42,510 nt of DNA, taken from the NCBI GenBank assembly GCA_964356875.1, contig CAYHIX010000002.1, forward strand, positions 1-42,510. The letters run 5' to 3'. The position numbers and the translations under genes were made by a program. Shown here piece after piece: positions 1-42,200 of the stretch (positions are counted from its first letter, which is position 1; each line of letters starts with the position of its first letter). The notes beneath the pieces are model-generated. The model saw nothing but the letters and a program-made list of their open reading frames with translations, was not told where the DNA came from and made no database searches. Origin of the DNA: an uncultured Candidatus Saccharibacteria bacterium (GTDB lineage: Bacteria; Patescibacteriota; Minisyncoccia; Phycocordibacterales; UBA9973).

Positions 1-55
1 ACCTGCCACCTCCTCATTGCAAATGAGGCGCTCTAGCCAGATGAGCTAAGGGCCC
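1..55 (-). tRNA. tRNA-Ala(UGC), truncated by the window edge (T-arm 3' half and acceptor 3' strand missing)
   Basis: Reverse complement reads GGGCCCT-TA-GCTC-ATCTGGCTA-GAGC-G-CCTCA-TTTGCAA-TGAGG-AGGTG-GCAGG-T... D and anticodon stems pair. The anticodon loop is TT-TGC-AA and G3 fits Ala. The 5' end is ambiguous by 1 nt (55 or 56). Confidence 0.8.
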
Positions 56-209
56 CTCTATCTAAAAGACTAACTACAATATTCTATATTATTTTACTAA
101 TAATGCAACTCCGCCTGGGTTGTTTTTTCTGTGTTTTCTGGTACTATATGTAAGTTCCTTTTAAATTTAATACATTCCGGGGTAGCTCAGTGGTAGAGCG
201 GTCGCCTGT

Positions 210-761
210 GGAAATTTCCACCCTTTGGTATAATATATTTATGCCAGACAATAGGAAATATGCCGATAGACGAGAAGCACTTATTAAAGCTGTTGCAAAA
301 CGACGTAAGAAAATAAAAGTTCTTTCAGTCGAATACAAAGGTGGCAAATGCCAAATTTGCGGATATATGAAATGTATCGGAGCCCTAGAACTTCACCACA
401 TTAATGCTAAAGAAAAAAGTTTTGGTGTTGGTGATAAAGGGTATACTCGTGCATGGATTGTTGTGCAAAAAGAATTAGATAAGTGTGTGCTTTTGTGTGC
501 CAATTGTCACAGAGAAGTCGAGTCAGGTATAACGCAGCTTTCTATCGAAAGATAGATCGAAAACAAGGTGAATTGCTGGAAACCCTCACGAGAGGGCAAT
601 CAGCAGCCAATCCCTAAATTTTAGGGCAGGTTCAGAGACTATCCTTTTATAGGAGTAGCCTGATTCAAAATCAGTCGAAGCGCCTTGCTCCTAAGTTTAC
701 AATTTATTTGTGAATATGGAGATGATATAGTCAATCCCTTTTAGTAATAAGAGGATAAGTG
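210..761 (+). mobile_element. Group I intron with an HNH endonuclease ORF in its 5' peripheral region
   Basis: Conserved core elements are readable. P is AATTGCTGGAAA (571-582), Q is AATCAGCAGCC (598-608), R is GTTCAGAGACTAT (630-642) and S is GAGATGATATAGTC (719-732). The P4 pair is TGCTG/CAGCA, the P5 hairpin is CCCTC-ACGA-GAGGG (583-596), the P7 pair is GACTA/TAGTC, and the P8 arms are AGGAG (651-655) and CTCCT (689-693). The intron ends in G. Confidence 0.8.
241..555 (+). CDS. Intron-encoded HNH-family homing endonuclease (104 aa)
   Basis: ORF-track frame 190..555. ATG at 241 is preferred because codons upstream of 210 lie in the tRNA exon. Motifs are CQIC...LELHHI...CANCHREVE (CxxC, HH, CxxCH zinc-finger HNH). 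The stop lies just before the intron P3-P4 core. Confidence 0.8.
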   Translation: MPDNRKYADRREALIKAVAKRRKKIKVLSVEYKGGKCQICGYMKCIGALELHHINAKEKSFGVGDKGYTRAWIVVQKELDKCVLLCANCHREVESGITQLSIER

Positions 762-821
762 TAAGCGATTGGTCGTAGGTTCGATCCCTACCCCCGGAGC
801 AAATGAAGCCATATTGAAATT

Positions 822-7644: not shown

Positions 7645-8319
7645 ATGGAAAACATTAAAATTTACGGAAAATTCAGCCTAGCGGTAGCATTACTTGTATT
7701 TTCAGTAGTGTTCTATTTTGCTGCAAGCAATTTCTCAAATCAAGGAGCATACGTAGAAGTCAAAGGTCTGTCAGAGAGGATCGTCAAAGCTGATGTAGCC
7801 ATATGGTCTATGAACTTCGAAGTTAAATCCAACGACGTTGATTCTCTATATGCTAGCATTGATAAGAACACCAAAGCAGTCACAACTTTCCTAAAAGAAA
7901 AAGGATTTGAAGATGCTGAGATAAATATCGCTCCTGTAAATATATACCAAGATACATATACTGGCTCACTCTTTAGATATAACTCTACCACTCAACTATC
8001 TGTGTATACCAAAAAAGTTGATCTAGTAAAATCTGCTTCTCGTGATACTCTATCACTTGTAAAACAAGGAGTGACTTTTAATCAAAATTCTATCGAATTT
8101 CAGTTTTCTGATATAAACAGTATTAAGCCAGAAATGCTTGCTGAAGCTATAAAGAATGCTAAAGACTCCGCACAGCAATTTGCAACAGAGTCAAACTCTA
8201 AGCTAGGGTCTATATCTCGAGGGAACCAAGGCGTGTTTGATATCTCTGAAAAAGATCCAGGAAGCCCTGAATTCAAAAAGATTCGCGTGGTATCTAGTTT
8301 GAGATTCCTCCTAAACTAA
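7645..8319 (+). CDS. SIMPL/DUF541-like membrane-anchored protein
   Basis: N-terminal TM. Overall length and the YVEVKGLSE...KADVAIWSMNFEV start fit SIMPL-domain proteins. Tentative. Confidence 0.5.
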   Translation: MENIKIYGKFSLAVALLVFSVVFYFAASNFSNQGAYVEVKGLSERIVKADVAIWSMNFEVKSNDVDSLYASIDKNTKAVTTFLKEKGFEDAEINIAPVNIYQDTYTGSLFRYNSTTQLSVYTKKVDLVKSASRDTLSLVKQGVTFNQNSIEFQFSDINSIKPEMLAEAIKNAKDSAQQFATESNSKLGSISRGNQGVFDISEKDPGSPEFKKIRVVSSLRFLLN

Positions 8320-9563: not shown

Positions 9564-9600
9564 GCTTTATTATAACATTTTTAAATGATATTATTATTTA

Positions 9601-24924: not shown

Positions 24925-25039
24925 TACGAAATTATATCATAAAAAACATCCTAAAACTTATCCACAGTTTTGCCGAAAAAATCTTAAAAAAGCGTTCTTT
25001 TTGGATCAAAAAAATGTTAAAATTTAAAGGTAAATATAG

Positions 25040-28000
25040 ATGAAATTATATATCAAAAAATTTAGCGAAACTTTAGTCGCAAAGATGCTTTTTAGCGTTA
25101 GATTTTTTGTTGTTGTTTTGATAATTATTGCAAATGTTTTTTCCGCACAAACTCTTCACGCAACAGCAGGTATTCCGAAGCTTATAAATTTCCAAGGAAG
25201 ACTCATGGACAACACAGGTGCACTCCTCGGTACTTCTGGTGGGACAGATTACTGTTTTAAATTTTCTATTTATGATGCTACGACTGCCGGCACTAAAATT
25301 TGGCCAACCGCAGCACCGACTCCAGACACTCTTGTGGTAAGGACCGGAGTATTTGATGCGACCATCGGAGTAGCAGACACTCTTGATCTTGCTTTTACAG
25401 ATGATCAAGCTTTTGTGAACGTCGCAGTTTCTGCAAAATCAGGAACTTGTGATGTGGGAGAGACAGGTGAGTCTTACGAAACTCTTACTCCACGTCCGCA
25501 AATTGTTTCTTCTGCTTTCGCGATAAATTCTGGAACAGTTGGAGGATTCACTCCTGCACAATCTGCAACTAACAATCAAATCCCAGTACTTACTTCTGGT
25601 GCTATCGTCCTCGGCCATGCGACCACAGCCGGCCTCGCATCGACTGGATCAAATGCTTTGACCATCGACGCAGGAACTTCTGGGATTTTAAATTTAAATA
25701 ATACTTCGACTGGAAATATTTTACTCGGTGGCGGATCTCTCTCTACTGGTTGTACACTTACAAATACCACAGGAGCGTTTGCATGTACCGCTGGGCTTTC
25801 TGGAGTCGGCGTAAATGCTGGAGCTGGATTACTAGAAGGTCAACTCGGTCTTACAATTACCGGCGCTGCAGTGTCACTAAATGCATCAAGCAACTTTGAC
25901 GTAAACATCGCCACAGGAACTTCAACAGGAGACATCACTCTTGGTGGAGGTACTGCAGGACAACTCATCTCTATCAATTCTGACGACTGGGATATTTCTA
26001 CTGCGGGAGCGATGACGGGGATTTCCGGCATCGCCAACAACGGCGCGTACACACAAAGTGGAAGTAGTGCTAATGCATTTACTGGGGACTCCACCTTTAG
26101 TGGTTTCTTACGAGCAACTGGAGCGATAGCCGAATCTGCTCAATCTATTGATCGTATTGACATTGGAGTTAACTCAGGCACCCCTCGTATGGTATTTGAA
26201 GATAGCGGAAGTACTATTTGGCAGGTTGATAACTTTGCTGGAACGTTTCGTTGGTTTACACCTGGTCAAGAGCGTTTTACTCTTGATAGTAGTGGAAACG
26301 TTGATATTAAAACTGGAGGTTTGCGTTTTGCCGCAACTGAGGTTATTACTTCAGGCCGAGCTGCACAAAATTTAACCGGTGTTAGTTCTTCTGGTACCAT
26401 TGCTTTCTCTGGACTTTCTGCGAACGGACCCGTCTACACTTCTGGCGGTACTGGAACACTTACGACAACGGCTCCAACAAGTGGTGCTATTGGTTACTGG
26501 TCTCGAAGTGGCACTACTTTAGAAACAACCACAGCTAATGACATAGTTTTAATTGATACTACAAATACAACTGGAGCTGATCTTGCAATCACCAACACCG
26601 GCATCTACACAGGGACAGGTATCTTGAACCTTACTGCGAATAGTGCGACGACTGGGACACTGGCAAGCATCACTGGCAACGGCGTAACTACTGGCCAACT
26701 CTTTGCTATTGATGGCGGTAACGCTATGACTACAGGGTCAGTGCTTGGAGTAACAGGGACAACCTATGTTCATGGTGCAGAAACAGGTTCACTTGTTAGC
26801 TTGGCATTTACAGATGCAACTATCGCCGCAGTTACTTCTACAACAAATGGAATTTTGCTCTCTCCAACTATCAACGCTCCATCTGGTGCAGCAACCAGAA
26901 CTATAAACGGGATTTCTATAGCACCAGCTTTTACAGCTTGTACAGCTGGAACTTGTGCAGTCAATGGACTTAATATTGGAAACGTCACAGATGGAACTGG
27001 GTTTACAGGAATTGGTATCAAAGTTGGCACAGGTTGGGATACAGGGATTACGGCTCCTGGCACTGCAGCAAATAGCGAACGATTTGGTTTGGGTGCCACA
27101 GTGCCATCAGGTACCGGAGGTTTAGCATTTGGTTATGGTGCAACTGCTAATGCTTCCGGAGCAACATACCCAATAGCAATCGGATATAACTCTAGTGCCA
27201 CTGGACAGCAAAGTATTGTTGTAGGAGGGGCTTCTACGGCAGTAGGTAATGGAGATATCACAATAGGATCAAATGCAACATCTACGGCAAGTAACACCAT
27301 TGTCATTGGTACAAGTGCAGCCAGTACTTCAAATGAAGAAGTGTTAATAGGGGGTAGTGCGACAGGATATAACGCTGGTAACGGCTATTTAGTAGGTATC
27401 GGTCATAGTGTTGCTGCTACAGGTCAGTACAGTACAGCAGTTGGTTATGACTCCTCCTCTACTCATACAGGAGCGGTGGTACTCGGAGCTAGTACAATTT
27501 CTGGGGGTAACTATTCTATCGCATTAGGTACATCTGCGACAACCACTGCAGCGAATCAATTTGTTGCGGGAAGTAATGGAGCGCAAATCACTGATGTGTA
27601 TTTTAGTGAAGGTGTTACAAATGCAACACCACTAGCGTGGATTTTGAACGGAACTGGTGGATCTGGTACTGATATCGCTGGTGGTGATATTACAATCGCT
27701 GGTGGTAAAGGTACAGGTAACGCAGCTGGCGGTGATATTCTTTTCCAAACTTCTAATGCAGGGGCATCTAGCGCTACACTTCAAAGCTTGTCTACAAAAA
27801 TGATTCTTACAGAATTAGGTAGTGTCGGTATCGGCGATACTTCTCCTGCGGCATTATTTACAGTAGGTTCTGGTGATCTTTTCCAAATTGCATCTAATGG
27901 AAACTTAACTTCTGCAAACGCAGGCACATGGACATTTAGTAACGACACAGACTTCGTCTTAACTGGCGGCACTAACGGACTCTCTATAGACGGTACGACT

Positions 28001-31000
28001 TTCTCTGTAGACGGTTCTAATAATAGAGTGGGTATAGGCACCGCGGCACCAAGCACACCACTACATATATTAGTAGACAATGCTACCAATAACGACGTTA
28101 CTAATTTTATAACACTTACCCATACGACTTCTGGAACACCAGCAAACGGTATCGGTGCGGGAATTTTATTCCAAGCGGAAGATACAAATAGTGAAAATGA
28201 GCTCGCTGCATATATAAACGGAGCTCTTACAGGAGCTTCGCATGGATCTGAAACAGGATCACTTTCATTCTATACAAAGAAGGTTGGGGGATATTCAGCT
28301 ATGATATTTGATAGTGCTGCTAGGTTGGGTATAAACACTTCACCAAGCGGTGGAGCACAATTAGATATACTTAACGATAGTTCTGCAATTAATAATGGGA
28401 TCTTACTTACATCGACTGCTAGCGTAGGTGGTTCTCCTTACTACGGTTTAAATATTGATAGAAGCTCTGGAACTGCATCTACTGCTTATGGTATATATGT
28501 TAACGTCGCAAGTACTAGTACCAACATAGCCGCTCAATTATCAACAACTAATTCTGCTACGAATACTGCGAGCAGTGTTATGAATCTAATCAGCTTAACT
28601 TCTGGTACTGCTGCGAACAACATAGGTGCACAAATGAATTTCTATACAGAGGACGACAGTGGAGCAACCGAACTAGCAGCATCTATCGCAGGTATTTTGA
28701 CTAACGCAACTCATGGTGCGGAAGCTGGGGCATTGGTGTTAAGTACTAGAGCCGGAGAGGTGCTCAGACTTCTAAATAATGGCAATGCAGGGTTTGGTAC
28801 TACTGGCGCAGAAAACGCACTCGACATAAACTCTGCCACAGGAGCAAACTTGCAACTTACATACAATGATAGCAATGGATCTGCTGCGAACAAAGTAAAC
28901 CTTGGTACAACCGCAACAGGTGACTTAACCGTTGTTCCTTCTGGGGGAGATATGGGCCTCACTGGAGTTTTGTCTGTATCTTCCATTCTTCAAGTCGGCT
29001 CTGCAACACCAACGACATATTCAAGACTCGGTACAGCTACTACAAACAGAAGTCTAGATGCAGCGAATGATTTATTAATCTCTGACGATCTGGAAGTAGA
29101 AGATGATGCTTGGATCGAAGGGGATCTAACTGTTACAGGTACTTGTACTGGTTGTGGTGGCTCCACCTTCTCCGGTGAAGTAGACGATGCAACGAATGAT
29201 TCCTTAACTTTCACTTCCGACGATGCTTCAGCACCAGCTGGAACAGTGAACTCTATTTTCCGCGATAACACAGGTGACATGAACATCAACACTGTCACTG
29301 GTAAAACTTTGAATGTACAAATTGCTGGAACTGATGAATACAATTTCTCTGCATCCGCTCTCGCGATGAATTCTAACAATATCACCGGACTCGGCACTGA
29401 TATCACCGCTACTGCTGCACTTACTATTACTTCTACCGGTGCAAGTAACGATATAACCCTAACATCTGCCGACCAAATTATTTTAAACAGTACTGGCACT
29501 ATCGAACTACAAGATGCAACGAATGTAACTGGTAACGCCGATGTATCAGGAACCTTGTTTGCCGGCACAGGCGATGCATTCCAAGTTGCAACTTCTGGTG
29601 CTGTAACCGCAGTAGGCGTGAACTCTGGCGCTGGGCTTTTGCAAGGTGCACTTGGCCTCACTGTCACGGGAGCAGCAGTATCATTAAACGATTCACAGAA
29701 CTTCAATGTCACTATTGCTACAGGAACAAGCACAGGAGACATTACTCTTGGCGGTGGAACAGCTGGTCAATTAATCTCTATTAATTCTGATGACTGGGAT
29801 ATTTCTACAGCAGGTGCAATTACCAATGCAACCTACGAAGGCTTAACTATCACAGCTAATGGAACTAATACTCTAAACATTGCTGCAGGAAAAACTCTCG
29901 TCGTTTCTAACTCTATCACTCTAGCTGGTACAGACTCTACAGTTATGACTTTTCCAACCACTTCAGCGACTATCGCCCGTACTGATGCAGGTCAAACCTT
30001 CACAGGAGTTAATACTTTCACTTCTCCAAGGATCATCACCGATATTTCTGATACCAATGGAAATGAACTCTTTAAGTTTACAGCTACTGGTTCAGCAGTC
30101 AATGAACTTACTTTAGCAAACGCAGCTACTGGAGGCATAATTACTCTCGCTGCTACAGGCGGAGACACAGATGTAGAATTTAGAATTGATTCTAAAGGTG
30201 CAGACGCTCTTCATCTAAATGCTACAGCTACTGGATCCATCTTGTTTGCTGGAGGAAGCGGCTCTTCTGGTTGTACCATTACAACAAGTGGAGCACTAAC
30301 TTGTGATGGCAATATCACTGGTCCAGCTACGGGAAGTATTGGTTACTGGTCACGAAGTGGTACAACCCTAGAAACTACCACAGCAAATGATATCGTATTA
30401 ATAGATACTACAAATACTTCTGGAGCTGATCTAGCTATCACTAACACTGGAGTCTACACAGGAACAGGAGTGTTTAATCTTACTGCGAACAGTGCGACGA
30501 CTGGTGTTGTAGGACAGATCAATGCTAATGGTTTAACAACTGGAACAGCGTTAGACATTTCTTCTTCCGGAACTATTACTACTACCGGAGCACTTCTAAA
30601 CTTAACTGCCAACAGTGCCACTACTTCTACTGGTGTTATTCGAGCTTCTGCAACCGCACTTACAACTGGCTTCATGCAAGCTGCGACTCTTGGCACAGCG
30701 CTAACAACTGGTGGTTACTTAAATCTCACTGGCGCAAGTTATGCTCCGGCAGCTGGTGCTACTGGCAATTTGATTAATATTGCTTTCACAAATGCAGCTA
30801 CTAATGGTACCGGTTCTTCCACAGTAACCGGTATGAGTATTACTCCTACAGTTTCTAACAACGGTGCCGGTATTCAAGAAACTTATGGCATTTATGTACA
30901 AAATACAGCTGGCACTCCATCTACAGGCACCCAAAATACTTACGGTATGAGAATTGGTAATCAAGGCAGAAGTGGTGCTGAAGCTTCTTATGGTTTACTG

Positions 31001-34000
31001 ATAGATAATCAAAGCGGTTCCACCGCTAATACAGGTGCGTTAATTAGTGTTTCCGGGGCTAGTGAAGGTATACATATTGCTGGAACCACTTTGACCAGCG
31101 GCACAGGGTTATCTATTTCTGATACTGTTGTGCAATCTGGTTTATCTAGCTTTACTGGAAACTATATTGATATTAGTATGACCAGAATTAATGCTACTTC
31201 TGGGACAACTACAGACAGTGGAAAATATTTGAATGTTTCTAGAACAGGCAGCGGTGTTACAGGTGGAGCTTTTGCTATAACAGGTAATTTGGTTAATTTG
31301 GCGTCAACGTGTTCAAGTACATGTACAGATTCTGGGAAAATTTTGCAATTAACTCAAAGTTTTGCCACTGCGTCTGGGACAGTGTTGGGGATAGATGGAG
31401 CAGGTACTGGTAATTTGATTTCTGCTGATGCAACAGCTGCTACAGCCAACGGTGTATCTATAGATATTCAATCTTCGTCTTCGTCTCAATATGCTCTTAA
31501 CGTTACAACAAATAATGCTGGAACAAATGCTCTCTGGATTGGTGGTGATGGTAATTTAGGTATTGGTGATATAACCCCAGCGAATAAGCTAACCGTCACT
31601 GGCGCAGCATCGATATCTTCAGTCTTACAAGTTGGTCAGGAAACTGTGGCCGCATATTCTCGTCTTGGTGCTGGCACGACAACTCACACTATGGACGCAG
31701 CAAACGATCTTCTCATTTCCGACGACCTTGAAGTAGATGACGACGCTTGGATTGACGGTGACTTAACAGTCACCGGTACTTGTACTGGCTGTGGCGGCGG
31801 AGCTTTCTCCGGTGAAGTTGATGACACAACTAACGACTCTCTAACATTTACTTCCGACGACGCTTCAGCACCAGCTGGAACAGTGAACTCTATTTTCCGC
31901 GATAACACAGGTGACATGAACATCAACACTGTCACTGGTAAAACTTTGAATGTACAAATTGCTGGAACGGATGAATACAATTTCTCTGCTTCTGCTCTTG
32001 CGATGAATTCAAACAATATCACTGGGCTTGGTACAGCACTTACTGCAACAGCAGGGTTAACAGTAACTGCGACTGCTGCCAACTTGGCTTTAGTCACAGC
32101 AACCAGTGGCAACATCACCTTAGCCCCAGCTTCTACGGGTTCTGTTCAGATTACTTCTGGAGTAACGACAGGTACAGGGACTTCTTCAGGAGTATCAATA
32201 GTTGCTAACTCTCTTACTCAAGGAACTGGGCTGGATATTTCTTCAACTAGCTTGACCACGGGAACATTAGAAAAATTAACTCTTTCTGGGACGAGCGCTA
32301 TAGCTACAGCTGCAAGTAGTGGTTCAGCTTTGACTATTAGTTCTTCGGCGACAGGTTGGACAGGAGCAACTCAAACCCTTGCTGCGGTAACCTCAAGTGG
32401 ATCAAATTCTAACGCTAGTGTGGTGCTCCGTGGTCTAAGTAGTTCGGTCACAAACACAGCGACAACAAGCACAAATGTAGCAGGTTATTTTAATGCAAGT
32501 GGAGCGACTACAAACCTAGGATTAAATGTGGATGCAGGGCAGACTTTACTCGGCGGTACTACGCTGACCTCAGGTACACTTTCAAAGCTTAATATAGTAT
32601 CAACGATGGCTTCAAATGGTTCGACTACTGCCATAGCTGGTATTCATGGAGATTATACATTTAACAATGGAGGTACTGCAGGATATGTCCAAATTGGAAA
32701 TAGATTTGTATTCAATAACGCACCGACGACAAATTCAAATACTATGGTCGGAGAGACTATCAGAGTAGTAGACAATAGCGGTCTCGCAAACCTAGTCCGA
32801 GGTATTGATATTACTGCAAACGCTGGTAGTAATACTGCTGGTACAAACACAGGTATCAGGACGACGGCAGCTACATTTGGTATTCAAGCTATCATATCTA
32901 GTACTGCTGGAGGTGTAGCTATACCAGCTGCTATATATGGTGAAAATACAGGCACAACCAACGGAGACATACTTCGTCTTTACACTGGCTCTATGACTTC
33001 TGCTACATCTATGGCTCAGCTTTATCATGATACCTCTACATTTACAGGTGACGGATTGCTTATGGATATGGCAGTAAGCACTGGTACATTCTCAGGAAAC
33101 TTTATTAATCTCAAAAACGCGAGTGTGCTTAAATTTAAAGTCACCAGTGCTGGCGTAGTTAGTATGGGATTGTCTGCTACTGCATCTACAAATGCAGTTT
33201 GTTCTAGCTTAGCAAATGCTACTGGTCCGACTGCAGGTACTGCGTATGAGATCCGTGATTGTAACGCTGCCCCAGCCGCCGACTACGCCGAGATGTATCC
33301 AGTAGAAAGTGGAGTAGAATTTGGAGACATAGTAGCGACAGGAGATGTGATGATAAATACATATGACACTACAGATGGAAACATAGACTGGACTAAGCTA
33401 AAAGGTCAAATCACCAAACTTGAAAAATCTACAAAAGCTTATCAAGGCAACATCGTCGGTATAGTATCTGATAACTATGGAGACTTTACTTCTGCAGGAC
33501 ACAATATAAAAGATGCAGACAATCCTATGCCGGTAGCATTGAACGGACGTGTGCCTGTAAAAGTAGCTTCAACTTCAGAGCCGATAGTGGCTGGGGATTA
33601 TCTTACTACATCTGCTGATGAACCAGGTAAAGCAACAAAAGCAGTAAAAGCAGGGATAGTCATAGGTAAGGCTATAGCTCCATGGAATCCTGGGCAAGCT
33701 ACTGTCATGGTATATGTCGAGCAAGGTTATTATAACGGAGAGAGTTTGAGTAGCTTTGCTGGTATCACTATCACAGGTACAGCCGAAGACTCCGCTATGA
33801 TACTAGCGAAGTTTTTAGAAGAACAAGACAGCATAGGGTATGATGTGTCAGAAATACTTACAGATCGTCTCGCTGCAGGGCTCGAGATAATCACTCCAAG
33901 ACTTACAGCTTCAGAGATAGATACAGGAGTATTGAGAGTAGGAGAGAGTGCGACTTTCCCAGGGCTTACAATGCTAGCAGGTGAGGAAGATCTACCAGCG

Positions 34001-34540
34001 AGAATCATCTTTGACGGGCAAGCAGAATTCAACATGCCTCCAATCTTTAACAAAGACACGGCAGGCTTTGCATTAGTGAAACAAGGGGACAAGAGTGTGC
34101 GTGTAGAATTTGAGGAGGAGTATGCGGCTACTCCAGTGGTTACTGCTTCACTTTCATTTGAGACTACAGACAACATAGATGAAACTTCTCTAGAAGATCT
34201 GTTTGCACAAAATATTTCTTCAATCATTGTAGAAAAAGATGAAACAGGCTTTACTATCGTATTAAATAAAAATGCTCCACAAGATATCCGCTTCTCATGG
34301 ATAGCTCTCGGAGTAAAAGACGCAGCCGTTTTTGAGAGTCTTGGTGAAGGTTTGGAAATTACATCACCTGCACCCGAAGAAAATTCTGGTGGTAGTGGTG
34401 GCGGAGAAGTATCTCCAGACCCAACACCTACTCCAATCCCAGAACCGGAACCAGAAATAATCCCCGAGCCAGAACCAGACCCTACGCCTGATGCAACTCC
34501 CGAACCTACACCCGAACCAGCACCCGAAGCTACACCATAA
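25040..34540 (+). CDS. Giant secreted/surface repeat protein (3166 aa): tail-fibre-like N-terminal module, Gly/Thr/Ala/Ser-rich (GTAS-rich) repeats, YadA-head-like repeats, a C-terminal autoproteolysis-like module and a Pro-rich tail
   Basis: A single uninterrupted frame in the ORF track. N-terminal hydrophobic signal/anchor (FFVVVLIIIANVFSAQTLHA). Internal duplications and motifs are described in the findings. A strong terminator follows directly. Confidence 0.9.
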   Translation: MKLYIKKFSETLVAKMLFSVRFFVVVLIIIANVFSAQTLHATAGIPKLINFQGRLMDNTGALLGTSGGTDYCFKFSIYDATTAGTKIWPTAAPTPDTLVVRTGVFDATIGVADTLDLAFTDDQAFVNVAVSAKSGTCDVGETGESYETLTPRPQIVSSAFAINSGTVGGFTPAQSATNNQIPVLTSGAIVLGHATTAGLASTGSNALTIDAGTSGILNLNNTSTGNILLGGGSLSTGCTLTNTTGAFACTAGLSGVGVNAGAGLLEGQLGLTITGAAVSLNASSNFDVNIATGTSTGDITLGGGTAGQLISINSDDWDISTAGAMTGISGIANNGAYTQSGSSANAFTGDSTFSGFLRATGAIAESAQSIDRIDIGVNSGTPRMVFEDSGSTIWQVDNFAGTFRWFTPGQERFTLDSSGNVDIKTGGLRFAATEVITSGRAAQNLTGVSSSGTIAFSGLSANGPVYTSGGTGTLTTTAPTSGAIGYWSRSGTTLETTTANDIVLIDTTNTTGADLAITNTGIYTGTGILNLTANSATTGTLASITGNGVTTGQLFAIDGGNAMTTGSVLGVTGTTYVHGAETGSLVSLAFTDATIAAVTSTTNGILLSPTINAPSGAATRTINGISIAPAFTACTAGTCAVNGLNIGNVTDGTGFTGIGIKVGTGWDTGITAPGTAANSERFGLGATVPSGTGGLAFGYGATANASGATYPIAIGYNSSATGQQSIVVGGASTAVGNGDITIGSNATSTASNTIVIGTSAASTSNEEVLIGGSATGYNAGNGYLVGIGHSVAATGQYSTAVGYDSSSTHTGAVVLGASTISGGNYSIALGTSATTTAANQFVAGSNGAQITDVYFSEGVTNATPLAWILNGTGGSGTDIAGGDITIAGGKGTGNAAGGDILFQTSNAGASSATLQSLSTKMILTELGSVGIGDTSPAALFTVGSGDLFQIASNGNLTSANAGTWTFSNDTDFVLTGGTNGLSIDGTTFSVDGSNNRVGIGTAAPSTPLHILVDNATNNDVTNFITLTHTTSGTPANGIGAGILFQAEDTNSENELAAYINGALTGASHGSETGSLSFYTKKVGGYSAMIFDSAARLGINTSPSGGAQLDILNDSSAINNGILLTSTASVGGSPYYGLNIDRSSGTASTAYGIYVNVASTSTNIAAQLSTTNSATNTASSVMNLISLTSGTAANNIGAQMNFYTEDDSGATELAASIAGILTNATHGAEAGALVLSTRAGEVLRLLNNGNAGFGTTGAENALDINSATGANLQLTYNDSNGSAANKVNLGTTATGDLTVVPSGGDMGLTGVLSVSSILQVGSATPTTYSRLGTATTNRSLDAANDLLISDDLEVEDDAWIEGDLTVTGTCTGCGGSTFSGEVDDATNDSLTFTSDDASAPAGTVNSIFRDNTGDMNINTVTGKTLNVQIAGTDEYNFSASALAMNSNNITGLGTDITATAALTITSTGASNDITLTSADQIILNSTGTIELQDATNVTGNADVSGTLFAGTGDAFQVATSGAVTAVGVNSGAGLLQGALGLTVTGAAVSLNDSQNFNVTIATGTSTGDITLGGGTAGQLISINSDDWDISTAGAITNATYEGLTITANGTNTLNIAAGKTLVVSNSITLAGTDSTVMTFPTTSATIARTDAGQTFTGVNTFTSPRIITDISDTNGNELFKFTATGSAVNELTLANAATGGIITLAATGGDTDVEFRIDSKGADALHLNATATGSILFAGGSGSSGCTITTSGALTCDGNITGPATGSIGYWSRSGTTLETTTANDIVLIDTTNTSGADLAITNTGVYTGTGVFNLTANSATTGVVGQINANGLTTGTALDISSSGTITTTGALLNLTANSATTSTGVIRASATALTTGFMQAATLGTALTTGGYLNLTGASYAPAAGATGNLINIAFTNAATNGTGSSTVTGMSITPTVSNNGAGIQETYGIYVQNTAGTPSTGTQNTYGMRIGNQGRSGAEASYGLLIDNQSGSTANTGALISVSGASEGIHIAGTTLTSGTGLSISDTVVQSGLSSFTGNYIDISMTRINATSGTTTDSGKYLNVSRTGSGVTGGAFAITGNLVNLASTCSSTCTDSGKILQLTQSFATASGTVLGIDGAGTGNLISADATAATANGVSIDIQSSSSSQYALNVTTNNAGTNALWIGGDGNLGIGDITPANKLTVTGAASISSVLQVGQETVAAYSRLGAGTTTHTMDAANDLLISDDLEVDDDAWIDGDLTVTGTCTGCGGGAFSGEVDDTTNDSLTFTSDDASAPAGTVNSIFRDNTGDMNINTVTGKTLNVQIAGTDEYNFSASALAMNSNNITGLGTALTATAGLTVTATAANLALVTATSGNITLAPASTGSVQITSGVTTGTGTSSGVSIVANSLTQGTGLDISSTSLTTGTLEKLTLSGTSAIATAASSGSALTISSSATGWTGATQTLAAVTSSGSNSNASVVLRGLSSSVTNTATTSTNVAGYFNASGATTNLGLNVDAGQTLLGGTTLTSGTLSKLNIVSTMASNGSTTAIAGIHGDYTFNNGGTAGYVQIGNRFVFNNAPTTNSNTMVGETIRVVDNSGLANLVRGIDITANAGSNTAGTNTGIRTTAATFGIQAIISSTAGGVAIPAAIYGENTGTTNGDILRLYTGSMTSATSMAQLYHDTSTFTGDGLLMDMAVSTGTFSGNFINLKNASVLKFKVTSAGVVSMGLSATASTNAVCSSLANATGPTAGTAYEIRDCNAAPAADYAEMYPVESGVEFGDIVATGDVMINTYDTTDGNIDWTKLKGQITKLEKSTKAYQGNIVGIVSDNYGDFTSAGHNIKDADNPMPVALNGRVPVKVASTSEPIVAGDYLTTSADEPGKATKAVKAGIVIGKAIAPWNPGQATVMVYVEQGYYNGESLSSFAGITITGTAEDSAMILAKFLEEQDSIGYDVSEILTDRLAAGLEIITPRLTASEIDTGVLRVGESATFPGLTMLAGEEDLPARIIFDGQAEFNMPPIFNKDTAGFALVKQGDKSVRVEFEEEYAATPVVTASLSFETTDNIDETSLEDLFAQNISSIIVEKDETGFTIVLNKNAPQDIRFSWIALGVKDAAVFESLGEGLEITSPAPEENSGGSGGGEVSPDPTPTPIPEPEPEIIPEPEPDPTPDATPEPTPEPAPEATP
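25806..26020 (+). repeat. Intragenic repeat A, copy 1
   Basis: Encodes GVGVNAGAGLLEGQLGLTITGAAVSLNASSNFDVNIATGTSTGDITLGGGTAGQLISINSDDWDISTAGAMTG. The paralogous copy is at 29610..29825. Confidence 0.8.
26481..26655 (+). repeat. Intragenic repeat B, copy 1
   Basis: Encodes GAIGYWSRSGTTLETTTANDIVLIDTTNTTGADLAITNTGIYTGTGILNLTANSATTG. The second copy is at 30331..30505. Confidence 0.8.
28968..29397 (+). repeat. Intragenic repeat C, copy 1 (about 430 nt)
   Basis: Encodes ...SSILQVGSATPTTYSRLG...DAANDLLISDDLEVEDDAWIEGDLTVTGTCTGCGG...NSIFRDNTGDMNINTVTGKTLNVQIAGTDEYNFSASALAMNSNNITGLGT. The second copy is at 31601..32034. Confidence 0.85.
29610..29825 (+). repeat. Intragenic repeat A, copy 2
   Basis: Encodes AVGVNSGAGLLQGALGLTVTGAAVSLNDSQNFNVTIATGTSTGDITLGGGTAGQLISINSDDWDISTAGAIT. 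Confidence 0.8.
30331..30505 (+). repeat. Intragenic repeat B, copy 2
   Basis: Encodes GSIGYWSRSGTTLETTTANDIVLIDTTNTSGADLAITNTGVYTGTGVFNLTANSATTG. Confidence 0.8.
31601..32034 (+). repeat. Intragenic repeat C, copy 2
   Basis: Encodes ...SSVLQVGQETVAAYSRLG...DAANDLLISDDLEVDDDAWIDGDLTVTGTCTGCGG...NITGLGT. It contains a 107-nt block (31862..31968) identical to 29225..29331. Confidence 0.85.
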
Positions 34541-36241: not shown

Positions 36242-36247
36242 AACAAT

Positions 36248-39200
36248 ATGAAAGTCTCAGCATTCATGATAGCTAAAATAAAATACTTATTAAGAATCTT
36301 CTCTAAATCTTTAGTAGTTGTTTTTATTTTTTCTTTATTTTTAGCTCAGTTTAATTTAGCACAAGCCATAGATGGAACTGGTATGCTTAACTTTGATGAA
36401 GACGGATTAAACAATGTGTCGCCGCATTATAGGACATGGAGCGGGACTGACTTCGGAGGAGAAAGTAATGCTCAAGACGATGAGTCTGCGAGTGATGATA
36501 CAAACCATACAATAGTAGAAGCTTCACCAACTCGTGATGAATACATAATGGGACGTTTGGAGTTAAATGGTCACGTGGACGTCCAGGTGTTTAGTGGTGG
36601 ATCTTGGATCAATGGAACAAACGCACCAACAAACGGAAACTTCACGACAGGCCTCGGTACTACAAATGACATAGCCAGGGGGTTTGATGTGGCTTATGAA
36701 AACGAAAGTGGCGAAGGGATGGTAGTCTACGAAAGTTCGTCTAGTGGTGATGGATTACTTAAGTATAGAACTTGGGATGGTGATAGTTGGTCTAGTGAAG
36801 ATTCCATTGATTACTCAGCAGTGGATGAAGGTAATGCTGTCGCGGTTTGGGTAGAATGTGAAGCAGATCCTGGTAGTAACTACATAATGTGTGCATGGCG
36901 AGAAGCTACTAACTTAGGTCTGTATGCAGCAGTTTGGGACGGCACTCAATGGCTCAACATAGCACAAATAGCTTCAGAAAATGGCACAGCTGCTAGGCAA
37001 GATTTTGATGTAGCATGGGAAGGTACAAGTGGTGATGGGATGATAGTATTCGGTGATGCCACAGGCGCACCTTTTATAGATGCATGGACATATACAAAAG
37101 GCTCAGGCTGGGCTGATACATCAAGCATGACTGACCCTGGTGCAGCAGTTCAATGGGTACGAATAGCCGGCAGTCCGATTAATGATTATATTGCAGTAAT
37201 GATAGGGGACACTCTTTCTACTACTAGTGCTGACTTGAACGTAGATATGTGGAATGGTTCTAACTGGACAACAGCAAACCAGCCCGGAACTATGGATATC
37301 GATATAAACAACAACGGATATGCCCAAGGCTTTGATGTGGCTTGGGAGCAGGCGACCGGAGATAGGGCTTTGTTTGTATTTCGTGATGGTACAACGAGTG
37401 AAACTTTGATTCGTTATATGGTTTATGATATTTCTGCAAACCAATTTCAAGCCATAGAAGACGGTACGCACTGTGCTTTGACAGAAGGTGCGGCGGGTTA
37501 TGCAGAAACTATTACAAACCTTTCTGCAGTAGAAGATTCCGCTGGTCCTTGTACTGCTACTTTTGCATTAGCGGATTCTTTTTCTGGTATAGATTTAAAT
37601 CCTGATCCTGGATCGAATAAAATTATGGTTTTGGCTGAGGACTTAACTGCAGACTTAGTGCCCGAAGCATTTTTGTGGAATGGTGACGCGAACGGTACAT
37701 GGCTTGCGCAGACAGCCACGATGCAAGGTTTTGAAACTGATCTCTCTACGGGGGCCACTCTGTCGAACTCTTTTCCGACAAAACCATATGACTTTGCTTA
37801 TCGTCAAGCGGGCGTTCACAATGTCTGGACAACGGGAACACAGACTACGAACATGACAGTCGGTGCTACGAATCAATACGTAGGGGGAGCTTTTGTTATC
37901 AACAGAACTACGAGTACAGCGAATGTAACCAGCATAACTATTACCGAACAAGGTACAGTCAATGCACAAACTAATTTAGATAATATAAAACTCTATTATG
38001 ACCTAGATAGTAGTGCTCCTTATAACTGTGCTAGTGAAGATTATGCTGGTGGTGCGACTCAATACGGCTCGACTGATACTGATGGTTTTTCTGCTACGAA
38101 TGGATCTTCTACATTTACTGGATCAGTAGCAGTCACGCCTACCTCAGTAATGTGTGTATACACAGTCTTAGATGTAGGAAGTGGAGCGACGGGTGCTGAG
38201 ACAATTGAAATTCAAATAACAACTCCTAGTACTGACATTGTCGTTTCTGCAGGGTCTATCAGAAATGGATTTGCTCGAGTTATTTCTGGAACTACAACTA
38301 TACAAAATGCTATTACTATATCCGGAACTTGTGATGCGTATGATTTGACTACTGACTGTACTGACGATGGTAGCAATTCTATAAAAGTTGCTGTGAATGG
38401 GACTTTGCAGGGTCAAACTGATTCTGTCGTAGATGGTGCATGGTCTATCGGCTCTATTTCGCAGCCAGTTGCTGGCGATGTAATTACTGTATTTATAGAT
38501 GGTGGAGCGACGGACAGTGAAGAGGCGGTGGCTATAACTAAATATGATGGAAGTGGAGACATAGATCTTGTTCGTTTGTATAAAGAACATGTGACTATTG
38601 GTACAGATACTGGTAGTGCAAACTCCGGACAAAGTTTGACTAGTACCAACTTAGAACAATACGATAACGAAGCGTCGGCTGATGAGGATGTGTTTTATGA
38701 ATCCGACACTGTTGCATTTACTTGTGATGGAGTGGCATCGAGTACCGGGTTTTGTTTGGATAAAAATGCGCAAACTAGTACGGGTCGCTTAACTATTTTA
38801 AGTGGTAATACATTTGCACCAGCGAGTAATATTAATGTACACGACATTGCAATAATCGGTACGTTTACTGGTAATGGCAACACTTATACTGTTAGCGGTT
38901 CTTGGAACGATACAGGAACTTTTACAGAAGGTACTAGTACAGTTACATTTACTTCTACATCGACAGGAGAAACTATTACTACGACAGGGTCAACATTTAG
39001 TACTTTAACTTTTAATGGTGTGGCAGGAGTGTGGACTCTACAAGATAGTGCGACTGTGTCGGGAGTACTAACTATTACTAATGGTGAGTTTAATGCCGGC
39101 TCGGGGACACTCACATTTTCAGGTACTGGTACTCCGCTAGTTGTATCAGGTACGTTCACTGCCTCGACAGGAACAGTGCAGTATACAGCAGCGACGGCGA

Positions 39201-42200
39201 CAGTGACGGTAACCACTTTTAATAATTTAATTTTAGGAGGCACTGGTACATATACTCTCCCTGCGTCAACTTGGAATATTAATGGCGATCTTACTATCAC
39301 CACTGGCGCAACTATCACTAAGGGCGCGGGAACAATTACTTTTAACGGAAGTGCAAATACTAAAACTATCACAGGTAATGCCACGAACAGTGACCTGGGA
39401 ACGATATCGATTGGTAACGGTTCACTTGCAAAGATTATAAATTTGGGATCGTCTATAAAATTAACTGCTGTTACTATCACTGCAGGCGCGACATTTGATA
39501 TTAGTTCTGATACTTTAACTTTGACTAGTACTACAACACCACTTACTACTACGGGAACTTTTACAACTACTGGTAGTACAGTTGTTTATACCGGTAACGG
39601 ACCTACTATAGCAGCTACAAATTATAATAATCTCGAGGTGTCACCAGCCACAAATAGCGGTACAGCTGTGTTCGCTGCCGGTACATTTACTATTGGTGGT
39701 AATCTCACTATTGGTAATGGAACAAACACATTAGTTGCGGTAACTGCTGCTACAAATGCATCGATATTAAATGTCACTGGTAATTTTACTATTAGCAACA
39801 ATACTACCTTTACAGCTAATACTGCGAACGCTTTAAGCATCGGTGGTAATTGGAGTCTCGGTGCCACATCTGCTGTATTTACAGCAAACTCTGGTACGGT
39901 AACATTTACAGCTACTGATACTGGAAACACATTAAGTGGAGGCATGACTGGCAGTAGTGCTTTTTACAATCTTATATTTAATGGTAGTGGTGGAGACTGG
40001 TATTTGAGCAGTGCTCACGACTTGAGCGTCGCGAACTTATTGACTGTTACTGCAGGAACTTTTAAAGGAGTATCTAGTGATGCCTACAATTTATATGCGC
40101 GAAATGGTTTAGTTGGAAATGGAATAGTAGATACTTCTACTTATGGAGGTAGTACTGTCGTAGATGGTAGTTTTGGTGGCGATAGTAACTGGATATTTAG
40201 TACGCTTCAAACTACTACTGCAAATGGTGGTGGGGTAATTACTGCGACTGGTAGTGGCTCTATTACAGTCGCTGGTGTGTTTTCAATGCAAAGCAGTAGT
40301 ACATTTAACGCTGGAAGTAAGACTTATATTTTATCTAGAGCATTTACTTCACCATTTGATCCATCTGGAGGTACATTTAATCCTGATACTTCCACTTTCC
40401 GCTTTACCGGTGCAGGCGATATTACCATCGCGCGTCCTGCGAATGGTTACTATAACTTAGAATCAAAGCCAGCATCTACTAATACGCACATACTTGCAGG
40501 CGGCGGTACATTAACCATCGCGAATGATTTTACTGTGGGTACCGGCTCAAACGCATCTATAGTAGACGCTGAAACAAACGATCCAGTAATTGATATTAAT
40601 AGAGATTTCATCACTAGCGCTTCGGCAACTTTTTCTGCTTCGTCTACGAGCACTATGACAGTTGCGCGTAACTTCACCGATGGTGGTACATTTACCTCAA
40701 ATACTGGTACAGTGCAACTAGATACTACGGCTGCTGCGGTAGTATCAGGCACAGTCACCTTTAATAATTTTACAGTTACTACTGCGACTAAAGACATCAC
40801 TTTTACTGCAGGTGAAACTACTACAATAAATGGATTACTTACTTTAACTGGAGGTAGTGGCGCGGGGAATGAGATAACTTTAAATTCTACAACAGGAAGT
40901 TCTAGCTGGACTATCAACCATCAAGGTACCGAAAACATCACGTATACTACTGTCACGTGGAGTGCTTGTCATGGCTCAAGTACTACTATCACAGCAGATG
41001 GAACGGGGAATACTAACGGCGGCAATAACGGTGTGTGTTGGACTTTGCCTGCTACTGGTATAACTGTCTCTGGTATTTTGTATGACACAGATGGGACTAG
41101 TGCATATGCCACAGTGACAGCTATGAAGCTTTCCATAGAAGGAGCTACAGCAGTAACTACAAATTCTATCGTAACTTCTGGTGTATTTAGTTTTGCTACG
41201 GATACACTTCCATCCGCTGGAGACGACATAACAATATGGCTCAATACTGATGGAGGAATCCAGGGAACTTTAGTATTTAAATATGGTACTTCGTGTACAG
41301 GGCACACAGACTGTACCGGGCTTTCTGTTGTTCGTAATCAAGTTCGTGTGCAAAACTTTCATAGTGGAGCTATTGCAAATACTGATTTGGCAGCTTGTGA
41401 CAATGACTCTGGTGCGGGATGCGCAGATGCTGATATTGGATTTACTGCGAACGCAGGAGTGTTGACCAATACTTGGAGTACTAATACTTTGAATATTTCT
41501 GGCAGTACGAGCTTTACACCAGGAGGGAATATAATAGTGAATAATCTTACTATCAGTGATGGTACTGTTGATATGGCAGGTAACAATTTAAATGTTGGAG
41601 CAGCAGGAGAAGCGAACTCTGGAAATATAAAAGTTGCGAGTGGTGAAGTGCTGAGTCAATCTACTAGTGGTACGACAACTATCTTAGGCTCTGCGAGCGG
41701 GAACAACTGTATTGGTGCTAATGCTGCTTCTTGTGCAGGTACTTCTGGTACGATAACTTTTGGTAATTTAACTATTGGAAATGCAAGTACTACATTTACA
41801 ACTTTATTAGGAAACAACGCGGGTGCTGGAACGGACGTTACAGTTGGAACAGTTTTGACTGTTACCACAAATGCAACCTTGAGCAATGGAATGGCTACGC
41901 TGATTTTATCCGGGGCAGGGACACCTTTCGTGCTTAATGGAACCTTTGCTGGAGGGAATAATGGATATTTTAGGTACACTGGATTTAGTAGTCCGGTTAC
42001 TATTAAAAACGCTTCATACGTAAACTTAGAATTAAAACCGGGAGGAGCACAAACATATATTCTTGAAGGCGGCGGTACTTTTTATGCACTGGCTTTGGTA
42101 GTCGGGGATGGAACTAACGTGGTCACTGTGGATGCCGAAACGAATGATCCTGTATTGTATACAGCGTATGGATTAACTTTGAATGCTAATAGTGTTTGGA

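Follow-up and report, generated by a model that had tools for sequence, protein, structure and literature searches.

The closest described systems are group I introns that interrupt tRNA genes of bacteria. Williams 2020 (bioRxiv 10.1101/2020.01.27.920355) raised the number of known tRNA/group I intron combinations from 4 to 21, and the seed alignment of that work includes Pam37.Asn.4Ug, which has the same tRNA host and the same insertion point as the element at issue here, an HNH-bearing group I intron in a tRNA-Asn gene. The same work describes no HNH passenger, and only remarks that genes may lie within introns of more than about 400 bp. Group I introns were also reported in tRNAs of complete genomes of the Candidate Phyla Radiation (CPR) (Lui et al. 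2021, PMC8172020), and Tsurumaki 2024 deals with rRNA inserts only. Our search of published work on tRNA-Asn and group I introns returned organelle-genome papers only, and in published work on CPR tRNA introns and homing endonucleases we found no description of an HNH-bearing form or of an endonuclease gene placed in the P1 loop (L1). To our knowledge, the sole characterised endonuclease-carrying tRNA intron is that of tRNA-fMet, whose enzyme, I-Ssp6803I, belongs to the PD-(D/E)XK family and not to the HNH family. As for HNH passengers, they have been found in IA introns of phages, within protein-coding genes. The element was found in a stretch of 42,510 nucleotides (nt) from an uncultured Candidatus Saccharibacteria bacterium (contig CAYHIX010000002.1 of assembly GCA_964356875.1), which was analysed at its full length and is called the window below.

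The window very probably carries a tRNA-Asn(GUU) gene that is split by a mobile group I intron with an HNH-encoding open reading frame (ORF), and that is the single visible tRNA-Asn gene of this Paceibacteria-type member of the Patescibacteria. The parts of the locus are as follows.

176..209, + strand: 5' exon of tRNA-Asn(GUU), 34 nt, tRNA nucleotides 1-35; its last nucleotide, U35, is the U-1 of the 5' splice site
210..761, + strand: group I intron with an IA-like core, 552 nt, recognised by RF00028 and by covariation in 78 relatives
226..234, + strand: extended -10-like element TGGTATAAT, 6 nt 5' of the ATG of the ORF, a candidate intron-internal promoter
241..555, + strand: HNH endonuclease ORF, 104 amino acids, from the ATG at 241 to the TAG at 553-555, in the P1 loop (L1) and 5' of the catalytic core
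762..799, + strand: 3' exon of tRNA-Asn, 38 nt, tRNA nucleotides 36-73, with the discriminator G73 at 799

Ligation of 176-209 to 762-799 in silico gives a canonical cloverleaf, which ARAGORN recognises as tRNA-Asn(gtt), and a natural intron-less allele with a sequence identical to the ligated exons (locus L124, from a Nomurabacteria metagenome-assembled genome, MAG) scores 71.8 bits against RF00005. Between the exons, the Rfam model Intron_gpI (RF00028) matches positions 479-754 with 82.4 bits (gathering score 50, E=1.3e-19), and five relatives (L004, L006, L008, L009 and L176) score 51.7-73.5 bits. An earlier note on this DNA had proposed these exon coordinates and the rebuilt cloverleaf, a 552-nt group I intron with P5, P6, P8 and P9 hairpins, and a complete HNH ORF at 241..555 ahead of the core. 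All of this has held up: the intron is found by the covariance model, the hairpins are real and covary in the 78 relatives, the ORF matches PHROG 2255 and contains the invariant motifs, and the spliced product, in the form of the identical allele, scores as a tRNA.

For comparison we collected nine loci through three HNH-relative proteins and 80 metagenome loci through the HNH alignment, and all of them have the same layout. A stem-based search of 90 HNH-homolog loci recovered 48 in which the split tRNA is perfect, each time with the anticodon loop CTGT|TAA (48/48); under a relaxed search most of the remaining loci proved to be the same gene, and others were truncated contigs with a 5' exon ending in CTGT. 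In the 50 distinct exon pairs, the acceptor and anticodon stems show many compensatory changes between the 5' and 3' exons, and in each of these versions the stems formed by the two halves remain perfect, with more than 500 nt lying between them.

The ribozyme was studied on 78 distinct cores, taken from the guide sequence to omega-G and aligned with MAFFT, in which pairs were counted for the structure read off the window. The helices, from P1 to the final nucleotide of the intron, are listed below.

206..210, + strand: 5' strand of P1, composed of exon nucleotides C206-U209 and intron nucleotide G210, pairing with 533-537; U209 is the splice-site U
533..537, + strand: 3' strand of P1, internal guide sequence C-GCAG, inside the last HNH codons; forms the U209•G534 wobble
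541..556, + strand: P2 hairpin, 6 bp with a GAAA loop, overlapping the last codons and the stop of the ORF; 98.9% paired, 5 of 6 pairs compensatory
564..570, + strand: 5' strand of P3, pairing with 681-687; 92.3% paired, 4 of 7 pairs compensatory
574..605, + strand: P4 (574-579/600-605) around P5 (583-587/592-596), with covariation counted
606..631, + strand: P6 (606-608/629-631) and P6a (612-617/621-626), the innermost two P6a pairs not conserved
637..641, + strand: 5' strand of P7, the guanosine-binding helix, pairing with 728-732; invariant in 78 of 78 cores, so that no covariation is possible
642..674, + strand: P7.1 (642-645/651-654) and P7.2 (660-665/669-674); 84-94% paired, all pairs compensatory
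681..687, + strand: 3' strand of P3, partner of 564-570
688..721, + strand: P8 (688-691/718-721) with an extended stem; 94.8% paired
728..732, + strand: 3' strand of P7, partner of 637-641
734..760, + strand: P9.0 (734-735/759-760) around P9 (737-743/748-754), the latter with a GUAA loop
761..761, + strand: omega-G, the final intron nucleotide; in all resolved relatives the TAA that opens the 3' exon is preceded by a G (G was required by the search)

Across the 78 cores 89.9% of the cells expected to pair do so, as against 70.4% in shuffled alignments and 34-46% after a shift of the partner by 1-3 columns. Both-sided, compensatory changes occur in 47 of the 61 pairs, and the covariation score is 0.49 versus 0.16 in shuffles, a value that none of 500 shuffles reached. 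Covariation thus backs the P3-P9 core, including the P3/P7 pseudoknot. Given the presence and covariation of P7.1 and P7.2, an insertion that is the hallmark of subgroup IA, the core is IA-like and not IC3; the window intron lacks the compact organization without P7.1/P7.2 that would mark it as IC3.

Seven metagenome loci (L012, L024, L036, L040, L063, L067 and L071) share the HNH gene, guide sequence, P2 and tRNA-Asn site with the window, but their core is of another kind and lacks P7.1/P7.2 (GGGATAACGGTGAA..., GTAGAGACTAGATAC), and one of them, L012, gave no RF00028 match at the gathering score. This arrangement suggests module exchange between two intron lineages. In the intron of L106 (alignment columns 355-450) a run of N is flanked by a duplicated core segment, which is most likely a scaffolding artefact.

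P1 is the helix that places the 5' splice site. Its guide strand, CGCAG (533-537), lies approximately 324 nt 3' of this site in the window, and GCAG is invariant in all 41 ORF-bearing homologs examined, at a distance of 305-344 nt. As many as nine codons (ACG, TTG, ATG, GTG, AAG, CTG, TCG, GCG and CAG) have the guide G in third position, the encoded amino acid varying (T, L, M, V, K, S, A or Q) while the third base is always G. Moreover, intron nucleotide +1 covaries with nucleotide 533, the 78 sequences having G-C in 47 cases, A-U in 23, G.U in 3 and a mismatch in 5. At the other end, P9.0 is 98.7% paired, with the pair types AU/GC and CG/UA/UG/AU, and its pairing and covariation put the 3' splice site at 761|762; as P9.0 lies just 5' of omega-G, this supports G761 independently of the search requirement. 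The +1/-1 covariation of P1 and P9.0 together fix both splice sites, at 209|210 and 761|762. The break therefore falls after the fourth anticodon-loop nucleotide, with U-1 and omega-G (CTGT|...G|TAA), as in the class Asn.4Ug of Williams.

Two other candidates for the 5' helices were rejected. The P1/P2 drawn by the Rfam alignment (479-540) falls within the ORF and is unsupported, the actual P1 3' strand and P2 being at 533-556. A hairpin at 208-221 (GTGGAAATTTCCAC), considered as a local P1, is not conserved in relatives, has a median folding z of +0.22 and rarely places U-1 opposite a G. This hairpin spans the 5' splice site and looks terminator-like in a scan; as it is not conserved, it is probably incidental.

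The local sequence CCTGT|GG...AAGTG|TAAGC can also be spliced in silico as CCT|GTGG...ATAAG|TGTAAGC, in which case the gene would be a tRNA-Thr(UGU) with an intron at 208-759 that separates loop nucleotides 33 and 34. ARAGORN makes exactly this call on the window in its intron mode, and in the window sequence alone U207 and G759 satisfy the U-1/omega-G rule. The comparative data refute this splice, and we regard it as almost certainly wrong: its omega-G position is A or T in many relatives (...AAAACG|TAA, ...AAAATG|TAA), its U207 would face A536, which is no G and hence gives no U.G wobble, and the covariation at +1/-1 and in P9.0 places the sites two nucleotides further on, as given above. 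In addition, intron-less alleles with the same exons read CTGTTAA. Asparagine identity is set by G34, U35 and U36 together with the discriminator G73, U1-A72 being usual in bacterial tRNA-Asn and G1-C72 in tRNA-Thr; U1-A72, C2-G71, G73 and the loop CTGT|TAA are present in all 50 distinct exon pairs, which thus hold the complete Asn set. We therefore read the gene as tRNA-Asn(GUU), with the intron between anticodon nucleotides 35 and 36 (U35|U36).

The structure predicts GTP- or guanosine-dependent self-splicing. The pre-tRNA would be transcribed with the intron, which would fold into an IA-like ribozyme comprising P1-P9 with P7.1 and P7.2. In P1, the exon sequence CUGU and G210 would pair with CGCAG (533-537), forming the canonical U209.G534 wobble, and an external guanosine would attack after U209. 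Omega-G761, placed by P9.0, would enter the G site, and the exons, held together by the anticodon stem of the tRNA as in other tRNA introns, would be joined into a normal 72-nt tRNA. The expected ligated-exon junction is …GGTCGCCTGT|TAAGCGATT… (GGTCGCCTGT|TAAGCGATTGG).

Some features around the gene may be added. The 3' end (797-802) reads GAG|CAA, hence CCA is not encoded and must be added post-transcriptionally. The sequence TGGTACTAT at 139-147, about 29 nt 5' of the tRNA start, is a possible promoter of the split gene. Positions 1-55 (- strand) contain the 5' part of a tRNA with the anticodon UGC (Ala), which is cut by the contig end and divergent to the tRNA-Asn gene.

The protein encoded within the intron has the motifs C37xxC40, H52H53, N88 and C86xxC89-H90, invariant in 25 sequences, and matches PHROG 2255 'HNH endonuclease' with E=4.5e-27; this profile match, together with the catalytic and zinc motifs, identifies it as an HNH endonuclease, and GenBank labels some of its relatives as such. 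In a Foldseek search with the AlphaFold model all PDB neighbours were HNH nucleases (Cap5, the Cas9 HNH domain, T4 endonuclease VII, a Gme nicking enzyme and McrA), and when the sequences of the PDB were searched with the HNH profile all matches were marginal (the HNH domain of a group II maturase and McrA, E>=0.02). The family is large: 3,057 relatives were found at E<=1e-3 (90% cluster level), mostly in Paceibacteria MAGs, and the best 120 of the 3,057 are 71-93% identical to the window protein. The ratio of nonsynonymous to synonymous substitution rates (dN/dS) is 0.07-0.11 against close relatives, with a median of 0.12 over non-saturated pairs, most pairs being synonymously saturated. Judged from these ratios, the HNH protein is under purifying selection, and the substitution patterns described above extend this to RNA, protein and tRNA alike.

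In ORF-less relatives of the intron (233-352 nt) the distance from the 5' splice site to GCAG is just 8-20 nt, and the P1 that results is small and ordinary. As the same GCAG is used in both forms, the HNH ORF is an insertion in the P1 loop. The ORF-less intron of L176 starts with GGTATTACGCAGCTTTCTATCGAAAGATAG, which is the coding sequence of the C-terminus of the window ORF (GITQLSIER*), and this intron looks like a deletion derivative of a window-like one. At L176 there is also an Rfam LOOT RNA match (73.8 bits, 7663-7791), approximately 4.6 kb from the ORF-less tRNA-Asn intron and probably unrelated to it.

The last seven codons of the window ORF also encode the guide sequence and P2. Since the 3' end of the ORF serves in both, translation up to the stop codon and formation of P1/P2 should be mutually exclusive on any one RNA molecule; a ribosome that reads to the end of the ORF would open both helices. 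Among 56 ORF-bearing leaders, 39 have a -10-like hexamer, with the TG extension in 32, mostly 6-9 nt before the ATG (TGnTATAAT-like). Accordingly placed in the window, the element at 226-234 probably allows the HNH ORF to be expressed from its own promoter, as a predicted leaderless mRNA. An extended -10 sequence (TGNTATAAT) was also seen at 9569-9577 (- strand) and 24931-24939 (- strand), 5-6 nt 5' of the ATG of two housekeeping genes, an NDH-2-like and a PfkB-like one, with no room for a Shine-Dalgarno sequence between the two. Leaderless mRNAs may thus be common in this genome, the intron ORF copying the layout.

To see how the intron is distributed, GTDB species genomes were scanned for a 31-nt pattern of the 3' exon. 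At least 119 stretches were obtained, each from a different assembly, and they fall into the following states, counted among the matches listed.

Intron-less tRNA-Asn alleles: 70
Intron-bearing alleles with HNH: 16
Intron-bearing alleles without the ORF: 20
Intron-bearing, truncated alleles: 3
Unrelated or cut sequences: 10

Intron-less alleles, which the earlier note had suggested looking for in relatives with a view to the homing site, are thus present, L124 with exons identical to those of the window among them, and with 70 intron-less against 36 intron-bearing alleles in this set the locus shows the polymorphism of a mobile intron. The exons are often identical between intron-less, intron+HNH and intron-only alleles. 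Three allele states among near-identical targets are the pattern expected of a homing cycle, in which the HNH enzyme would nick or cut an intron-less tRNA-Asn gene near the anticodon loop and repair from an intron-bearing copy would spread the intron. Viral contigs scanned for the 3' exon gave no match.

Such strong purifying selection, with dN/dS of about 0.1 and saturated synonymous sites, in a very large and well-conserved family might also be taken to mean that homing is no longer, or not alone, what the protein is kept for and that it has a role at the level of the host or the intron, as a splicing helper or as a nuclease against foreign DNA with an intron-less tRNA-Asn; phages indeed carry both tRNA-Asn genes and HNH relatives. 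We consider such a role unlikely. Among the matches listed, the ORF has been lost in 20 of 36 intron-bearing species representatives while the intron and the tRNA were kept, which argues that neither splicing nor the host needs the protein, and the occurrence of intron-less, intron+ORF and intron-only states among identical exons fits a selfish homing cycle.

The HNH gene can also be followed outside the intron. Its closest phage relatives, 53-67% identical, are free-standing genes located 75-105 nt 3' of tRNA-Asn(GUU) in three Bacillus phages.

Phage Bastille: HNH locus L209, 2161-2832
Phage Goe5: HNH locus L210, 2161-2785
Phage BCU4: HNH locus L212, 1626-2216

No group I intron was detected at these phage tRNA-Asn/HNH loci. 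The HNH stop codon of Bastille is followed directly by a second copy of the anticodon loop and 3' half of tRNA-Asn. On a bacterial contig (L086, 2440-2895) the HNH gene is likewise free-standing and without a ribozyme. A 43-nt pseudo-copy of the tRNA-Asn 5' part, its anticodon loop mutated, comes first there; TATACT and the ORF follow, and after them an intact tRNA-Asn gene that has no intron. Many weaker phage HNH matches overlap tRNA annotations. A further relative, 59% identical, is encoded by the Prevotella megaphage Lak-B5 (L211, 1637-2225) within a tRNA cluster, right after a disrupted tRNA-like gene; the 5' half of the latter ends in CTGT and it contains nested tRNA-like fragments, and in ARAGORN it comes out as Ser(gct), the insert being 141 nt long.

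The placements in the Bacillus phages and in L086 indicate that this HNH lineage is tied to tRNA-Asn genes independently of the ribozyme. Taken at face value, they fit a free-standing endonuclease gene that entered the intron, or one that left it; Bonocora and Shub reportedly described, in 2009, a pathway in which a homing endonuclease gene (HEG) invades an intron. One can go further and imagine a tRNA-Asn-gene specialist moving between phage tRNA clusters and the P1 loop of cellular introns, and retained because it would also serve the host: the intron would shield the host's own tRNA-Asn gene, and the enzyme would cut incoming phage or competitor DNA with an intron-less tRNA-Asn, as an intron-based self/non-self nuclease. 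This is a speculation that we hold to be highly unlikely.

Several points weigh against our reading of the locus as an active, HNH-bearing intron in the single tRNA-Asn gene. The split-tRNA search accepted perfect stems only and asked for a G ahead of the 3' exon; the 100% pairing of the exons and the constancy of omega-G are therefore partly given by construction. The exon side of P1 has only 4 bp, which are invariant, and its covariation comes from the +1/-1 pair alone; by eye, no consistent P10 was seen between the 3' exon and the bases lying 5' of the guide in the ORF-bearing homologs. On the protein side, the Pfam HNH profile (PF01844) scores 20.4 bits against a cut-off of 21.4, one bit short, the AlphaFold model is mediocre (predicted local distance difference test, pLDDT, 69.6), the Foldseek E-values are weak (>=0.03), and 104 amino acids are few for a site-specific homing enzyme. 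Our view of the host's tRNA-Asn copy number is that of this 42.5 kb contig. The anatomy of the gene, both splice sites, the RNA structure, the purifying selection and the presence/absence polymorphism emerge from the sequence and its comparison with relatives; catalysis (splicing and DNA cleavage), the target of the HNH enzyme and the use of the promoter are predictions from the same material.

With 42.5 kb of the genome visible and splicing resting on prediction, the split gene could be thought of as a dead relic that does not splice, its work being done by another tRNA-Asn gene that is intact and lies elsewhere in the genome. On the contig itself there is no second tRNA-Asn gene, and default ARAGORN reported no tRNA at all in the 42.5 kb window. 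The 3' exon pattern was matched once per genome in each of the at least 119 species genomes, and a gene without function would hardly keep perfect, compensating exon stems in 50 versions across more than 500 nt, covarying ribozyme helices and a guide G held against codon drift. Besides, in circularised CPR genomes the tRNA sets were complete only with intron-bearing tRNAs included (Lui et al., PMC8172020). A relic is thus very improbable, and that the split, spliced gene is the sole tRNA-Asn gene of its host is plausible.

If the split gene is the only one for this tRNA, translation of every Asn codon in these reduced genomes would depend on the self-splicing of a ribozyme. As standard tRNA finders miss the tRNA-Asn gene here, completeness and decoding capacity are under-called in many Patescibacteria MAGs. 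Intron-less, intron+HEG and intron-only alleles, spread over thousands of related genomes, constitute a natural data set on the homing cycle, and HEG codons tied to the guide sequence and P2, together with free-standing phage relatives, bear on how endonuclease genes and introns meet. The known mechanism of group I introns is unchanged by these results.

The rest of the window encodes, among others, DnaE, HisRS, GAPDH and a split transketolase, and the named relatives of its proteins are from Paceibacterota or Patescibacteria. It also contains two giant ORFs, one at 25040-34540 (+ strand) of 3,166 amino acids, the other at 36242-42508 (+ strand) of at least 2,089 amino acids, which runs off the contig end; the seemingly gene-poor stretch past 36.2 kb is this second ORF.

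The earlier note had also judged a tRNA-Asn host with an HNH passenger to be unusual, and its view of rarity is outdated: Asn.4Ug is in Williams 2020, and more than 3,000 relatives of the HNH protein exist, mostly in Paceibacteria MAGs. The element is widespread in the phylum and its tRNA-Asn site already catalogued, and it is the HNH passenger for which we found no description. Compared with the classical tRNA introns (tRNA-Leu UAA, fMet, Ile CAU and Arg CCU, the Anabaena/Azoarcus IC3 type; PMC3984707), the window intron is alike in its anticodon-loop site, in a P1 built from loop nucleotides and in exons held by the anticodon stem. It differs from them in the tRNA and the position within it, in the IA-like core with P7.1/P7.2 and in the ORF. 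The I-Ssp6803I intron of the Synechocystis tRNA-fMet gene (Bonocora & Shub 2001, as presented in PMC3984707) resembles it in carrying an endonuclease, there a homing enzyme directed against the anticodon region of the intron-less tRNA gene, as is predicted here, whereas the host tRNA, the intron subgroup and the phylum are different.

Among phage elements, an IA ribozyme is likewise combined with an HNH passenger, there a homing (nicking) endonuclease, in I-HmuI of SPO1, I-BasI of the Bastille DNA polymerase gene, I-TwoI of Twort and I-PfoP3I (PMC3428280). However, the hosts of those introns are phage protein-coding genes, and the enzymes are of greater size and have additional DNA-binding modules, in contrast to the cellular tRNA host and the 104-amino-acid enzyme in L1 found here. 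SegB of T4 (PMC2330249) parallels the free-standing relatives as a homing endonuclease in a phage tRNA cluster, but is a GIY-YIG enzyme.

The nearest counterpart is Pam37, with the same CUGU|UAA site, U-1, omega-G and a P7.1-type insertion. It also has GCAG, a P2-like hairpin and then GGUGAAUUC...GGAAACC, ends with ...GGGAUAAGUG, and its local alignment with the window core scores 37 (21.2 +/- 2.7 in shuffles), through a shared GCAG-P2-P3-P4 stretch. In the Williams alignment the P1 of Pam37 is drawn with a nearby 'ugua', whereas the covariation found here supports GCAG. Unlike the window intron, Pam37 is ORF-less and only 276 nt long. Set beside these systems, the locus is instructive for a HEG in L1 that overlaps the guide sequence, for an IA-like core in a tRNA gene and for phage relatives residing beside tRNA-Asn.

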